A DNA stretch of 64,000 bases from Patescibacteria group bacterium (GCA_041675205.1 JBAYUF010000004.1:29898-93897); one strand, 5' to 3'. Shown: positions 3,065 through 16,084, counted from the first letter of the stretch. The notes: generated by a model from the letters alone, not told the origin. Translations and numbers: made by a program.

Positions 3065-4274
3065 TATGCCTAAAATCAAAACGGACCCAAAAATAATTCA
3101 TCGTCTACTCACTCGTGGTGTAGAAACTGTTTACCCTACAAAAGAGGCTTTAGAGAAAGTTTTGTTATCGGGTAAAAAGTTGCGGATTTTTCATGGCATT
3201 GATCCGACCGGTAAGCTACACATTGGACACAGTGTCAGCTTGAGGAAACTTCGACAATTTCAGGACTTGGGGCACGAGGTTATTGTGCTCATTGGAGACT
3301 TTACGGCTCGCATTGGCGACCCGACCGATAAAAGCGCGACGAGGCAAGCATTGTCTAAGCGTGAGGTGCTTCAGAACGCTCACGACTATAAAAAAATAAT
3401 TGGTAAAATTTTAGATCTAAAGAAAACAAACGTCCGTTTTCTGCACAACGAAAAATGGACGAATAAGTTAAAGCCCGAGAACTTACTCGAGCTGGCGTCT
3501 TCGTTTACCGTTTCACGCCTCTTAGAACGGGACATGTTCCAAAACAGAATTAAAGAGGGCAAAGAAATACGCGTCCACGAATTTCTCTACCCAATTTTTC
3601 AAGCCTACGACAGCGTTACCATGGATGTCGATATTGAAATTGGTGGTAACGACCAAACATTTAACATGCTGGCTGGGCGAACACTGCTGAGAAAGTTAAA
3701 AGACAAAGAAAAATTTGTTTTGGCAATGAAGCTGTTAACGAATGCCGACGGCAAAAAAATGGGCAAAACCGAGGGTGTAAAAATCAATCTTGACTCCGCT
3801 GCTACTGACATGTACGGAATGCTGATGGCTGTGCCCGACACTTCTATTATCGACTTCTTTACATTGTGTACCGATGAATCGGACGAAGAAATAGAAAAAA
3901 TGAGGCGAGTACTCGCGTCTAGTTCATCAAACCCGCGCGACCTTAAAATGAAGTTGGCTCGAACAATTGTTGCGCTCTACCACAACGTGAAAGAAGCCAA
4001 AAAGGCGGAAGCAAATTTTGTAAACGTATTCCAAAATAAAGAGCAACCTGAATCAATTCCCACAGTCAAACTGACAAAGTGGCCAAAGACAATTCTTCAG
4101 GCGCTCGTTGTCTCAGGCCTCGCAACCAGTATGAGTGAGGCGCGACGCTACGTTGTGCAAGGTGGTGTACGCATTGCTGACAGTGTGGTCACCGACCCAA
4201 ATGCAATGCTCCCCGCTTCTCCGGTCATCATCAGCCGCGGCAAGCGACATTATTGCCGACTTCAAAAACAGTAA
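3057..4274 (+). CDS. tyrS: Tyrosyl-tRNA synthetase with C-terminal S4 domain
   Basis: HIGH motif (KLHIGHSV), KMSKS variant (KKMGKTEG) and an S4-like C-terminus are present. The start overlaps the valS stop by 8 nt. Confidence 0.88.
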   Translation: MASMPKIKTDPKIIHRLLTRGVETVYPTKEALEKVLLSGKKLRIFHGIDPTGKLHIGHSVSLRKLRQFQDLGHEVIVLIGDFTARIGDPTDKSATRQALSKREVLQNAHDYKKIIGKILDLKKTNVRFLHNEKWTNKLKPENLLELASSFTVSRLLERDMFQNRIKEGKEIRVHEFLYPIFQAYDSVTMDVDIEIGGNDQTFNMLAGRTLLRKLKDKEKFVLAMKLLTNADGKKMGKTEGVKINLDSAATDMYGMLMAVPDTSIIDFFTLCTDESDEEIEKMRRVLASSSSNPRDLKMKLARTIVALYHNVKEAKKAEANFVNVFQNKEQPESIPTVKLTKWPKTILQALVVSGLATSMSEARRYVVQGGVRIADSVVTDPNAMLPASPVIISRGKRHYCRLQKQ

Positions 4275-5996
4275 ATGAACGCGCTCCAGATTGCTAAAGC
4301 AGAACTCATAACAGTCCTCGCTGCACATGATTATTCAGTGACAGCGCACGAGGTCATTATTCCTGAAGCGAGTCTGGGGGACCTGGCGCTCGCCTGCTTC
4401 TCTATTGCAAAAAAACACAGTGTGCCACCACCGCAAGCTGCCAAACAAACGACTGAGCTTATAAACAGCTACGTCGCCGCAACACCAGATTCGTTGCTAA
4501 GTGGCGCCACCGCCGTTGGACCGTACCTCAATATAACCTTGCGACGGTCAGCCTTTGCGGCGCTCATCACCGTCGACAATGATTTATTAGCCACAATACG
4601 CCAAGAAAAACCGGAGCGATTGCTGGTTGAGTTTATTTCGCCAAATACCAATAAGCCCCTGCACATTGGACACCTCAGAAACGCCTGCCTTGGCTGGAGC
4701 ATTAGTGAACTACTCAAAGCAGAGGGGCATGAGGTAATCCGAGCTGAAATTATTAACGACCGCGGTGTTCATATAATGAAATCCCTCTTGGCGTACGAAC
4801 GCTGGGGCAACAGCCAAACACCGGAAACCGCAAACAAAAAATCGGACCACTTCGTGGGCGACTACTATGTGCAGTTTGCCAATGAAGCAAAACAAAACCC
4901 AGACCTCGACGCTGAAGTCTTAACGTATCTACAGCGCTGGGAAGCTGGCGACGAAGCACTAAGAAAACTTTGGCAGCAAATGAACACCTGGGCAGAAGAG
5001 GGTCAAACGACCACCTGTAAAAGGCTCGGTATAGCTTTTGACCGCGTTGACTACGAAAGTAACATTTACGAAGCGGGTCGAAAACTTGTTGAAGAAGCCG
5101 CTGCAGCAGGGCTAGCGACAAAAAAAGACGACGGCTCGATTGTCGCCCCTATCACCACCGCTTCCGAAGAAGGACCAAAAGAAAAGGTGCTGCTGCGAGG
5201 TGATGGTACAACGGTCTACATCACCCAAGACTTAGCATTAGCGGCGCTCAGAATGCAGGAGCTTCGTCCAGCCCGCATGCTGTTTGTTGTGGCGCAGGAA
5301 CAAGATTATCACTTTACCGTACTCTTTGAGCTACTAGAACGGTTCCATGTTGTGTCGCGCGATAATGTTGAACACGTCAGCTACCACCTCGTTTCACTCC
5401 CGGAAGGTAGAATGAAATCACGAGAAGGTACAGTGGCAGACATTGATCCCCTGCTTGACGAACTCATGCTCCTTGCAAAAACAGAACTTAAAAACAGAAC
5501 CACTGAACTAACCGAAGCTGAGTACAACGCCCGGGCCGAAACTATTGCGCTAGCTGCGGCAAAGTTTTACATGCTCTCTGTTCGGCCGTCCTCAGATATA
5601 ACCTTTAACCCGAAAGAGTCTTTAAGTTTCACGGGGAAAACCGGTCCTTATCTTCTCTACACGCATGCCCGACTACGAAGCATTCTTCGCAAAGCCGGTG
5701 CGGCTGCTGGTGCTCAAACTCCAGCGACGTTAACTGATGCAGAATGGGGCGTTATAAAAACAATCGGGCTTTTACCAGAAACGGTTTCCTTCGCGGCCAA
5801 GCATCGTGATCCGTCACGCATCGCTGACTATGCGTACACCTTAGCGCGCGCTATTGCCGCCTTCTATGAAGCCGATCCAGTGCTGACGGCCGACGAAGCA
5901 ACCCGCACGTGGCGGCTGACGCTACTCACCAAAGCCGACAGCGCACTCGTTACCGCCTTGTCGCTCCTCGGTATACAAACACTCGAAGAAATGTAA
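4275..5996 (+). CDS. argS: Arginyl-tRNA synthetase
   Basis: The ArgRS signature SPNTNKPLHIGHLRNA and a DALR-type C-terminal anticodon-binding region are present. The ATG directly follows the tyrS stop. Confidence 0.93.
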   Translation: MNALQIAKAELITVLAAHDYSVTAHEVIIPEASLGDLALACFSIAKKHSVPPPQAAKQTTELINSYVAATPDSLLSGATAVGPYLNITLRRSAFAALITVDNDLLATIRQEKPERLLVEFISPNTNKPLHIGHLRNACLGWSISELLKAEGHEVIRAEIINDRGVHIMKSLLAYERWGNSQTPETANKKSDHFVGDYYVQFANEAKQNPDLDAEVLTYLQRWEAGDEALRKLWQQMNTWAEEGQTTTCKRLGIAFDRVDYESNIYEAGRKLVEEAAAAGLATKKDDGSIVAPITTASEEGPKEKVLLRGDGTTVYITQDLALAALRMQELRPARMLFVVAQEQDYHFTVLFELLERFHVVSRDNVEHVSYHLVSLPEGRMKSREGTVADIDPLLDELMLLAKTELKNRTTELTEAEYNARAETIALAAAKFYMLSVRPSSDITFNPKESLSFTGKTGPYLLYTHARLRSILRKAGAAAGAQTPATLTDAEWGVIKTIGLLPETVSFAAKHRDPSRIADYAYTLARAIAAFYEADPVLTADEATRTWRLTLLTKADSALVTALSLLGIQTLEEM

Positions 5997-13632: not shown

Positions 13633-13643
13633 GACCGTTTTTA
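13616..13643. terminator. Bidirectional terminator between convergent genes
   Basis: The run aaaaa, the hairpin acggtct-cgta-agaccgt and the run ttttt. Confidence 0.75.
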
Positions 13644-13913
13644 CTTTTTAAAAAGACTAGCAGCATTTGCTAGTTCAGCTTTTTCTTTTCGCTGCAAACG
13701 CTTTATCGACATTTCACGCTTTAATGCTGTGCTGTGAGAAGATTGTTGTTCAAACCAACAAAGAACGACAGGCAACCTCCCTCGAGTATACCGTGCGCCC
13801 GTACCATTATTATGTTGCTCGATGCGTCGCTCTATGTGAGTAGTGATGCCAGTGTAATAGGTACCATCAGAACATCGCAGTAAGTACACGAACCAATCTG
13901 CCTCACTACTCAT
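13641..13913 (-). CDS. GIY-YIG nuclease superfamily protein (UPF0213/YhbQ-like)
   Basis: The N-terminus WFVYLLRCSDGTYYTGITTHIERRIEQHN is a typical GIY-YIG motif in a 90-aa protein. Confidence 0.8.
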   Translation of the reverse strand: MSSEADWFVYLLRCSDGTYYTGITTHIERRIEQHNNGTGARYTRGRLPVVLCWFEQQSSHSTALKREMSIKRLQRKEKAELANAASLFKK

Positions 13914-13940
13914 AAAAATTTAAAAAGATTCTCTGCACTG

Positions 13941-13990
13941 CGAACCCGATCCCGTGGACACGGGACGATCTTCCGAGTGACAAGGCCACA
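13941..13990 (-). pseudogene. Decayed tRNA-derived fragment (unit 1), related to unit 3
   Basis: It shares the 3' flank ctctgcactgcgAAC and the hairpin core gatcccgtg..cacgggacgat with unit 3, but lacks the tRNA 5' half and shows no cloverleaf. Confidence 0.4.
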
Positions 13991-14035
13991 AACGTCAGTA
14001 AAGTACGAAGATAAAAACTTGTGTTCTCTGCACTG

Positions 14036-14110
14036 CGGACTCGACCGGATTCGAACCGGCGATCTTCTCCGTGACAGGGAGACGTGTTAACCAGGCTACA
14101 CCACGAGTCC
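14036..14110 (-). tRNA. tRNA-Asp (GTC)
   Basis: The reverse complement is GGACTCGTGGTGTAGCCTGGTTAACACGTCTCCCTGTCACGGAGAAGATCGCCGGTTCGAATCCGGTCGAGTCCG. It folds as a cloverleaf with anticodon GTC and a TTCGAAT T-loop. CCA is not encoded. Confidence 0.9.
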
Positions 14111-14175
14111 ACACTGAAGAGAACGAAAAGAGTATAGGTTGAAACGTTGTAATGGACAACTCTAACGAGATACTG

Positions 14176-14252
14176 CGGACTCGATCCCGTGTCGACGGGA
14201 CGATATCTCCGTGATCCCGCGAAGCGGGATTACCAGGCTACACCACGAGTCC
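14176..14252 (-). pseudogene. Chimeric tRNA-Asp-like pseudogene (unit 3)
   Basis: It keeps the first 23 nt (GGACTCGTGGTGTAGCCTGGTAA) and the last 11 nt (TCGAGTCCGCA) of tRNA-Asp. It also keeps the identical 27-nt upstream leader (gtccacactgaagagaacgaaaagagtat). The D/anticodon/T arms are replaced by non-canonical hairpins. Confidence 0.5.
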
Positions 14253-14369
14253 ACACTGAAGAGAACGAAAAGAGTATCACAAAAGAATTTAAGGAAACGA
14301 GTAGTGAAGCGGCGGCCGCTTGCTTACCTTAGCCTAGGGCTACACGGAAAACAAGCGGCAAAACAGGTG

Positions 14370-14744
14370 CTACTTCTTTGGCTTGTGCGCCTTAATGGCG
14401 GCTTTAACTTCGCGGACAACAACTGCAAAAATCTTCGGGTGATCAGCGGCAAGTGTGGACAGCACCTTACGGTCAAGTTCAATGTTTGCTTGCTTTAGCC
14501 CGGCAATAAATGCTGAGTAACTAAGACCAGCTGGCCGCACGGCGGCGCCTAAGCGGGTCTGCCACAATGCTCGATAATCTCGCTTCTTTAGCTTCCGACC
14601 AACATAGGCATGGACACCAGCCTTCACAATGGCGGTCTTTCCTGCCCGAAGTGTATTCTTACGCTTCCAACCAAACCCCTTCGCTCGCTTTAAGATGTTC
14701 TTGCGGCGCTTTACATGCGCGACGCCTCGTTTTACACGTGCCAT
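14370..14744 (-). CDS. rplT: 50S ribosomal protein L20
   Basis: MARVKRGV..KRRKNILKRAKGF..LKQANIELDRKVL matches the L20 family. Confidence 0.93.
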   Translation of the reverse strand: MARVKRGVAHVKRRKNILKRAKGFGWKRKNTLRAGKTAIVKAGVHAYVGRKLKKRDYRALWQTRLGAAVRPAGLSYSAFIAGLKQANIELDRKVLSTLAADHPKIFAVVVREVKAAIKAHKPKK

Positions 14745-15700: not shown

Positions 15701-16084
15701 TGGTGGAGATGAGGGGAGTCGAACCCCTGTCTGAAGAGTGGAAGCCGAAAAGTCTACAGGTATAGTCGCTCATTGATTTCCATCCGACGACGTTGAGCGA
15801 CGACGTGACGGATGCGAGTTCCGAAAGTACTCCGTACGCACCGGAACAGCACGTTAGGAGTGCTTACAAATATGACACCTCAATTGCTTCCCTGTAAGCG
15901 AGGAGGCTGAGATGGTTCTCGGCTTTTTTAGGCGAGAACAGGAGCAAGGCGGAGAGACGCGAAAGCGTTCTGCACCTTACTGGCCAGTGTGTTGGCTTGT
16001 ATGTAGGTGGGAAAGATTTAGGAGCATTCCCATGCTCCACCTGCCTTTTCGGAAAGAACTCTCCATCGAAACCGGGACATCCCC
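15701..16084 (-). ncRNA. ssrA: tmRNA (SsrA)
   Basis: The 5' end is GGGGATG and the 3' end is GGGGTTCGACTCCCCTCATCTCCACCA. Together they form a tRNA-Ala-like acceptor with a G3-U70 wobble, and CCA is encoded. The gene sits directly downstream of smpB. The putative tag ORF is GCC AAC ACA CTG ... GTT CTC GCC TAA. Confidence 0.88.

Follow-up and report, generated by a model that had tools for sequence, protein, structure and literature searches.

Hairpin-bearing, non-decoding copies on either side of a tRNA-Asp gene in a Patescibacteria genome

We report the analysis of a transfer RNA (tRNA) locus from a Patescibacteria group bacterium (GCA_041675205.1 JBAYUF010000004.1:29898-93897), at which a functional tRNA-Asp(GTC) gene stands between two copies of itself, here called units A and C, which do not decode and which carry a stable hairpin in the slot of the T arm. 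By 'the window' we mean the whole stretch of DNA that was analysed, 64,000 nucleotides (nt) in length, and coordinates are counted from its first letter. The array and its neighbours are all on the minus strand and run in the order rplT, leader, unit A, leader, tRNA-Asp(GTC), trailer, unit C, trailer and GIY-YIG gene. An original prediction, made from the sequence of the window, had described one bona fide tRNA-Asp flanked by two decayed tRNA-derived copies next to a GIY-YIG nuclease gene, and had proposed either serial partial duplication at a tRNA attachment site or, alternatively, a family of tRNA-derived small RNAs. In the present work the array is dissected and compared with related loci, and we arrive, tentatively, at the view that the two units are tandem duplicates that have been remodelled and retained. 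In order along the minus strand, the features are:

14370-14744, minus strand: rplT, encoding ribosomal protein L20, upstream of the array (PF00453; infC-rpmI-rplT synteny in the window and in relatives)
14253-14277, minus strand: leader copy 1, 25 nt, with a -10-like GATACT/TATACT (direct repeat, alignments, promoter scan)
14176-14252, minus strand: unit A, a full-length, non-decoding paralogue of tRNA-Asp (no tRNA call; fold; clustered differences from the true gene)
14214-14230, minus strand: hairpin A-h1, ATCCCGC-TTC-GCGGGAT, in place of the 3' D stem and the 5' anticodon arm (-10 kcal/mol, z=-3.5)
14184-14201, minus strand: hairpin A-h2, GTCCCGT-CGAC-ACGGGAT, occupying unit A's T-arm slot (repeat and palindrome scan, fold)
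14131-14159, minus strand: promoter-like site ahead of the true tRNA-Asp, -35 TTGTCC, 17 nt, -10 TATACT (consensus match only)
14111-14135, minus strand: leader copy 2, the last 14 nt of which pair with the trailer (inverted repeat; the pairing covaries in relatives)
14036-14110, minus strand: tRNA-Asp(GTC), functional, CCA not encoded (ARAGORN; Rfam RF00005, 65.8 bits)
14023-14035, minus strand: trailer CAGTGCAGAGAAC, 13 nt, which pairs with the leader and lengthens the acceptor helix (inverted repeat, folding, covariation)
13991-14022, minus strand: spacer, 32 nt, with a degenerate leader-like segment, TCTTCGTACTTTACTG, assigned to unit C (alignment)
13941-13990, minus strand: unit C, a degenerate copy of tRNA-Asp (repeats, alignment, 57 bits with covariance model R1)
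13949-13966, minus strand: hairpin GTCCCGT-GTCC-ACGGGAT, filling the T-arm slot of unit C (repeat and palindrome scan, fold)
13929-13940, minus strand: trailer copy 2, CAGTGCAGAGAA; a U-rich stretch and then the start codon of the GIY-YIG gene come next (direct repeat, alignment)
13641-13913, minus strand: GIY-YIG gene, 90 amino acids, catalytic domain only, with a terminator at 13674-13656 (PF01541, E=1.6e-18)

The array is compact. Neighbouring units lie 45-60 nt apart, with spacers of 36 and 37 nt, and repeat with periods of 142 and 95 nt; the 36-nt spacer, between unit A and leader copy 2, carries a -35-like hexamer. That only one of the three units is a bona fide tRNA is borne out by ARAGORN and Rfam, both of which call the tRNA-Asp(GTC) at 14036-14110 and nothing else. 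Under relaxed models the two flanking units still do not qualify as tRNAs: neither unit A nor unit C matched RF00005 even at E<=10, neither was called as a tRNA by ARAGORN, run at 60-100% of its thresholds: down to 80% the middle unit alone is found, and at 70% unit A surfaces only as a 'tRNA-???' with a 2-nt anticodon. We also reject the units as canonical tRNAs on account of the T slot, which holds a stem of 6-7 base pairs (bp) and a loop of 3-4 nt, not a 5-bp stem with a 7-nt TTCRANY loop.

Unit A is a mosaic of exact identity and rewritten patches. It matches the true gene exactly over 46 nt, made up of the 25-nt leader and the first 21 nt of the gene (tRNA positions 1-21), then over TCACGGAGA (9 nt), and finally over 13 nt at its end (the last 9 nt of the gene and 4 nt of trailer). 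The sharing of leader, 5' end and 3' end had been predicted correctly; the lengths had not, since 25 and 21 nt replace the 27 and 23 nt given for the leader and 5' end, and 13 nt the 11 nt given for the 3' end. All 18 differences between unit A and the true gene are confined to two patches, and with random placement of the differences a mismatch-free run of 46 nt has p=0.0002 (100,000 permutations). The first patch swaps the 3' D stem and the 5' anticodon arm for hairpin A-h1 and the second swaps the T arm for hairpin A-h2, much as the original prediction had it. A perfect 7-bp acceptor stem and the discriminator G are retained, and the anticodon arm is gone. In the predicted fold (-38.5 kcal/mol, z=-3.5) the 7-bp acceptor stem is stacked directly on a 7-bp hairpin, giving a helix of 14 bp, not 12.

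Unit C had been taken for a third, shorter remnant. The 3' flank and the hairpin on which that description was based are indeed shared, but a degenerate leader and D-arm remnants are present as well, and by alignment this unit is a more decayed full-length copy, not a mere 3' remnant. Following the degenerate leader and the D-arm remnants, the alignment places an internal deletion and an anticodon-loop remnant, TTGTCAC; the 3' end consists of the hairpin in the T-arm slot, the acceptor strand CGGGTTC and an exact 12-nt trailer. There is no paired anticodon stem and no 5' acceptor strand, and the remaining acceptor strand can still pair with GGACTCG by way of two G-U pairs.

The hairpins of all the units have the stem TCCCGY/RCGGGA, closed by a loop of 3-4 nt. 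In the T slot the hairpin replaces the 17-nt T arm at the same place and the same length, and it is approximately twice as stable (the hairpins have -9 to -10 kcal/mol, against -4.8 for the T arm that was replaced). Every stem cell is paired (28/28). At the sixth pair of the stem two hairpins have U-A and three have C-G, and both kinds occur within the window. A 'covarying loop' had been predicted for the T-slot hairpins of units A and C, which does not hold: the stems are identical and the loops merely differ. These two hairpins (14185-14200 and 13950-13965) are reverse complements at 15 of 16 positions, the loops being inverted (CGAC versus GTCC), for which template switching is a possible origin. 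Through their hairpins units A and C could pair at long range, and in a predicted fold of the whole array (z=-4.7) the 5' side of unit A (leader and acceptor strand) is paired with the 3' side of unit C (acceptor strand and trailer), which would enclose the true tRNA; the prediction is aided by the two hairpins being near reverse complements.

A covariance model, R1, built from four T-slot units separates the hairpin units (57-66 bits) from the 3' halves of true tRNAs (22-35 bits), true T arms scoring ~25-30 bits lower. A search with this model of 120 kb, from the window and related loci, gave no additional copy, and no further copies of the hairpins or tRNA ends were seen in the 64-kb window or in 11 related loci, on which grounds a genome-wide repeat was rejected. 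For hairpin A-h1 there is no donor sequence within 64 kb.

Five loci (L010, L011, L007, L005 and L095) were informative for comparison, and in one of these the replacement of the T arm recurs. L095 comes from a distant relative, with an L20 that is 64% identical to that of the window. Downstream of its tRNA-Asp come two 54-nt units in tandem, which are 3'-partial copies with the elements AGAAGATCG, TCCCGC-CAA-GCGGGA, TCAAGTCCG and CATTGCCGATAACG, and then an intrinsic terminator; three 54-nt periods can be counted, starting at AGAAGATCG, and the units lie between tRNA and terminator on the strand of the tRNA. In the T-arm slot of these tRNA-Asp-derived units is the same 12-nt stem as in the window, with position and length unchanged, and the units in each genome bear the trailer of their own genome. 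The sequence of L095 up to the repeat is identical in two further samples. With this recurrence in a second genome, the alternative raised in the original prediction, that of a family of tRNA-derived small RNAs, gains support.

The flanks of the true tRNA are themselves structured. Leader and trailer of pre-tRNA-Asp make up a 14-bp extension of the acceptor stem in the window (14023-14035 with 14111-14124), in L011 (2242-2356) and in L095 (4880-4995), and this helix covaries among the three loci, one pair, for example, being C-G, G-C and A-U. All three of the tRNA-Asp genes lacking an encoded CCA (window, L011, L095) have this helix, and both of those with one (L005, L007) are without it, a distribution which suggests that the CCA-less tRNAs of this clade have a distinct maturation route. 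Since the leader-trailer helix of the true pre-tRNA covaries, the trailer copies attached to the units are plausible RNA partners. A sigma-70-like promoter (-35 TTGTCC, -10 TATACT) precedes the true tRNA, with its -10 inside the duplicated leader, and at the equivalent place before unit A (14253-14285, minus strand) there is an extended -10-like element, TGTGATACT. Judging from these motifs, unit A and the true tRNA may each have a promoter of their own.

The periodic layouts of the arrays (142 and 95 nt in the window, 54 nt in L095) show directly, at the level of sequence, that tandem duplication of the leader-tRNA-trailer unit gave rise to them. What we favour, at somewhat short of an even chance, is that these duplicates have been remodelled into retained, non-decoding hairpin elements that are co-transcribed with the tRNA. 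The units A and C and the units of L095 may constitute a small, lineage-specific family of tRNA-Asp-derived non-decoding elements, a grouping in which our confidence again stops a little below the halfway mark. With T loop and anticodon removed, the units cannot act in translation. The segments that touch the ends of the precursor are retained: the variable-loop AGATCG, the 3' acceptor strand and the trailer, and in unit A also the leader and the 5' acceptor strand. In the window the units lie between rplT and the GIY-YIG terminator, all on the strand of the tRNA and with a promoter-like -10 in the duplicated leader. The units would be co-transcribed with tRNA-Asp, and selection would keep them as modules, acting in cis, that give structure to the flanks of the pre-tRNA-Asp transcript. 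Unit A would form a tRNA-like minihelix, cleavable by RNase P and RNase Z, at which the message of rplT would be parted from the tRNA. Stable hairpins, together with a spare trailer able to pair with the leader, would be the contribution of unit C and the units of L095; these would give insulation or protection to the 3' side and, in the window, also to the 5' end of the GIY-YIG message.

We infer that the hairpins are retained, and not the outcome of random decay, because exact identity flanks the rewritten patches and because the stem is invariant across lineages whose neutral sites are saturated. At the divergence of L095 neutral intergenic DNA should be randomised, as even in the sister species, L010, the L20 of which is 99% identical in protein, rplT is only 86% identical in DNA; the shared stem therefore argues for retention. 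Homogenisation that halts at the edges of the hairpins is likewise most easily explained by selection on the hairpins. A bolder version, in which a clade of Patescibacteria maintains T-loop-less mimics of tRNA-Asp, having a super-stable conserved hairpin for the T arm and their leader, acceptor and trailer interfaces intact, as cis-regulatory or processing modules or as decoys for acceptor-end enzymes, we regard as unlikely. In the literature we found no description of such units in Patescibacteria, nor of the recurrent replacement of a T arm by a conserved hairpin.

A number of observations weigh against retention and must be set beside it. Hairpin units occur in two lineages only. L011 and L007 have a single tRNA-Asp and no hairpin units, and the same is true of L005; the three-unit set is not conserved in these related genomes, and any function of the units is therefore dispensable. 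The place of unit A is taken in L010, the sister species, by the 5' half of a canonical tRNA, which means that the present form of unit A is young: it is younger than the split from that species. The contig of L010 (1090-1125) ends inside tRNA-Asp at TCACGGAG, the exact point at which unit A and the true gene diverge, which hints at a repeat or a strain polymorphism at that point in the L010 sample. Set against the 5' strand of the tRNA, the L095 units show two C-A mismatches in their 3' acceptor strand, hence leader/acceptor pairing is not uniformly kept; and since unit C and the L095 units have no 5' acceptor strand, a single role for all five hairpins is not obvious. Finally, the covariation within the stem is thin, with one compensatory pair and six invariant ones, and is not significant against shuffles (78/500).

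Several of these points are what would be expected if the units were neutral by-products, which is the main rival to their retention. Tandem duplication, through slippage or unequal crossing-over, would have given rise to dying pseudogenes, the hairpins being generated by template-switch palindromes and short gene conversion, and none of this would have any function. The periodicity of the arrays is accommodated in the window (142 and 95 nt) as in L095 (54 nt), as are the internal deletions and decayed leader of unit C, the absence of units from three relatives, the normal tRNA at the place of unit A in the sister species, and the non-significant structural covariation; the reverse complementarity of the A-h2 and unit C hairpins (15/16) is, moreover, what a template-switch loop inversion would give. 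Such decay does not explain how the same stem came to be in the same slot in two lineages with saturated neutral sites, nor why conversion tracts should homogenise both flanks and yet always end at the hairpin edges, nor the origin of A-h1, for which 64 kb of sequence offers no donor. On balance we consider that a functionless, decaying duplicate is somewhat unlikely.

An improbable explanation, and one that is largely refuted, is that the units are scars of mobile DNA: partial duplications of the attL/attR type, or repair scars or immunity variants left by a GIY-YIG homing endonuclease like T4 SegB. Integration classically takes place at the 3' ends of tRNA genes and is a common source of partial tRNA genes (PMC9897764), and SegB is a GIY-YIG homing enzyme within a tRNA cluster (PMC2330249). 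In addition, a GIY-YIG gene occupies the same slot in the window and in L005, the proteins being 37% identical, which hints at an insertion hot spot, and the end of one contig, L002, coincides with the GIY-YIG start. Integration and excision at the tRNA, as the original prediction proposed, nevertheless fit the locus poorly. Pfam annotation on both sides of the array revealed no integrase, transposase, phage or Cas genes within ~15 kb, the units are only 45-60 nt apart, the leader and 5' end are duplicated in unit A, and the T arm, which is the usual integrase core, is precisely what differs. An att-site duplication, with no integrase or element body, short spacers and an altered T arm, was rejected for these reasons. 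Apart from true tRNA-Asp genes, pattern scans of IMG/VR and a BLAST search against 50,697 phage genomes turned up nothing in viral contigs or phage genomes but chance matches within GC-rich coding sequence, and a phage or attP origin was dismissed on this evidence.

The GIY-YIG gene itself was confirmed at 13641-13913, next to the array, as the original prediction had placed it; its adjacency, on the other hand, is not a requirement. The protein is a single domain, with the family-invariant residues Y10, Y20, G22, R30, H34 and E67 all present; it has no DNA-binding domain and is of a size resembling YhbQ/UPF0213. It is ~60% identical to planctomycete homologues, as against 37% for the L005 protein (4774-5007, 77 amino acids), and two such genes in one slot suggest that the region downstream of tRNA-Asp is a hot spot, where GIY-YIG genes were acquired independently or replaced. 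Units exist without a GIY-YIG gene, none being present at the L095 locus, and in L005 a GIY-YIG gene exists without hairpin units. Among 80 loci of GIY-YIG homologues in GTDB genomes, 8 have a tRNA within 2.5 kb and ~4 have one within 400 nt. The 72 homologues with no tRNA within 2.5 kb lead us to reject a general GIY-YIG/tRNA linkage and, taken with the bare catalytic domain and the L095 units, a GIY-YIG homing cassette. Because L095 has units and no such gene, the GIY-YIG gene is probably a neighbour of the element and not a part of it. The contig whose end coincides with the gene, L002 (JGI), carries the full array and ends at its position 3832, corresponding to window position 13914, a single base short of the GIY-YIG start codon; the gene may be present in some members of that population and absent from others. 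In L005 (4452-4741) the tRNA-Asp is followed by two blocks of ~110 nt, each of three 34-nt tandem repeats, and then by the different GIY-YIG gene; these repeats hold a hairpin, GGCTT-GGCA-AAGCC, and a motif, TCGTTCTTCAAGC, which resembles the tRNA-Asp leader consensus of the clade. In a metagenome-assembled genome of the Oscillospiraceae (L039, 2807-3119) a GIY-YIG homologue is followed by tRNA-Leu(GAG) and then by two inverted copies of its last 19-23 nt, a pattern that looks like the att remnants of an integrative element.

Other kinds of element were considered and set aside. A guide RNA in the style of CRISPR-associated transposons (CAST), TnpB or bridge RNAs was rejected as no Cas, TnpB or transposase gene is nearby. 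A CRISPR array or type III toxin-antitoxin RNA repeats are not consistent with the lack of unique spacers, cas genes and PADLOC matches, and for type III toxin-antitoxin repeats there is the further point that the L095 units have no downstream protein gene. The tRNA-Asp genes of Patescibacteria can bear introns at position 35/36 (PMC13011429); a group I intron remnant was rejected, given that no intron model matches the tRNA-Asp locus and only ~140 nt are available there.

It is very improbable, in our view, that the repeated feature is a palindrome acting at the level of DNA, that is, a 16-bp TCCCGY(N3-4)RCGGGA with GATC on both flanks that a dimeric regulator, nuclease, methylase or recombinase would bind or cleave. 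In the stems it is the sequence that is conserved, not only the pairing (6 of 7 pairs are invariant); they are perfect palindromes present two or three to a locus, and in L095 a YerC/TrpR-like helix-turn-helix gene lies upstream, next to the tRNA. The half-sites, however, are separated by either 5 or 6 nt, whereas a dimeric operator would usually have a fixed spacing; the occurrence of both C-G and T-A as the sixth pair within one genome fits base pairing better than a half-site preference; and no candidate binding protein is common to the window and L095 loci.

An artefact of assembly, in which strain variants of one tRNA-Asp gene were joined into a chimera, is excluded even though the source is a metagenome assembly and related contigs break inside the array, since the layout agrees across three independent assemblies. 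The full three-unit array is base-for-base identical in an ENA contig and in a JGI contig of a different sample; from a third sample, a pair of Logan contigs enters the array, one from each side, and stops at repeats of at least 31 nt, as k=31 would predict. The repeats of the array (<=53 nt) are shorter than the k=141 of the long contig.

The order of rplT followed by tRNA-Asp is conserved in the clade. More widely, the neighbours of the array comprise aminoacyl-tRNA synthetases, a type IV secretion system (T4SS)-pilin-like protein, clade-specific membrane and coiled-coil proteins of unknown function, infC-rpmI-rplT, the transfer-messenger RNA (tmRNA), smpB and glyS. The closest other L20 to that of the window, among 5.8 billion proteins, is 70% identical, and the L20 homologues P0072, P0020, P0042 and P0006 either have no tRNA beside rplT or lie on contigs that are too short. 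A metagenome scan with a 250-amino-acid neighbour protein returned two loci only. The tmRNA gene (15701-16084, tag ANTLASKVQNAFASLRLAPVLA) lies between smpB and infC, an order that is the same across the clade. Directly past the rplT stop codon, at 14315-14359 on the minus strand, there is an imperfect 14-bp inverted repeat, GCCGCTTGTTTTCC...GGTAAGCAAGCGGC, which is kept in the sister species L010; as it has no U tract, a role in processing or stability is more probable than one as a terminator. Within the tyrosyl-tRNA synthetase gene, at its 5' end (3111-3123), 13 nt are exactly complementary to tRNA-Asp positions 3-15, which is probably a coincidence, with ~0.2 chance matches expected by our own estimate.

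If the units are functional, they would represent a bacterial tRNA gene that has spawned non-decoding, structured RNAs which stay attached to the parent gene, and they would bear on the maturation of CCA-less pre-tRNAs with long leader-trailer helices in Patescibacteria, a phylum of minimal genomes in which retained non-coding DNA is unlikely to be idle. If they are only decaying duplicates, they illustrate cleanly how a tandem tRNA array can undergo mosaic concerted evolution, and they are a caution for annotation pipelines. In either case the story of a GIY-YIG gene or an att site, as suggested by adjacency, does not hold.

The nearest described analogue of the arrays is the set of trailer repeats of tyrT-tyrV in Escherichia coli (rtT/RttR, tpr), which are tandem repeats 3' of a tRNA, on the same strand, ahead of a terminator and in a register that starts in the 3' end of the tRNA. 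The tyrT trailer repeats are co-transcribed and processed into a stable RNA. We checked the layout in E. coli K-12, where 178-bp repeats overlap the 3' end of tyrV and are annotated as the small RNA RttR. A layout of this type is seen in L095, with its three 54-nt periods and terminator, and in unit C of the window, 95 nt after the tRNA. The E. coli repeats differ in copying ~19 nt of unaltered tRNA 3' end, whereas here the copied segment extends from the variable loop, or comprises the whole gene, to the trailer and has its T arm swapped; the window also has an upstream full-length copy with a leader of its own, and there is no sequence relationship between the two systems. The partial tRNA genes left by integrative elements (PMC9897764) are similar in being extra, partial tRNA 3' copies near an intact gene, and differ in that here there is no element, integrase or kilobase spacing, the T arm is altered and the 5' end is duplicated in unit A. 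T4 SegB (PMC2330249) likewise is a case of a GIY-YIG gene adjoining a tRNA gene, but the protein of the window is a 90-amino-acid catalytic domain only, its homologues are not linked to tRNAs and the units also occur without the gene. The tRNA-Other of Bacillus cereus (PMC3399842) is, like the present units, a tRNA-derived gene outside translation that is retained beside normal genes; it keeps its cloverleaf and is detected by tRNA finders, unlike units A and C.

For unit A, the nearest functional analogy may be to the t-elements of plant mitochondria and to mascRNA at the 3' end of MALAT1, which are non-decoding tRNA look-alikes with an acceptor stem on a T-like helix, cut by RNase P and RNase Z; in MALAT1 the interaction between leader and trailer matters (PMC8457004). 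Those examples are eukaryotic or organellar, the helix of unit A is of 14 bp and not 12 and has no T loop, and the comparison does not extend to unit C and the L095 units, which are without a 5' acceptor strand. By its predicted fold unit A would have an acceptor-plus-helix geometry of this kind, and its place is between an mRNA, that of rplT, and a tRNA.

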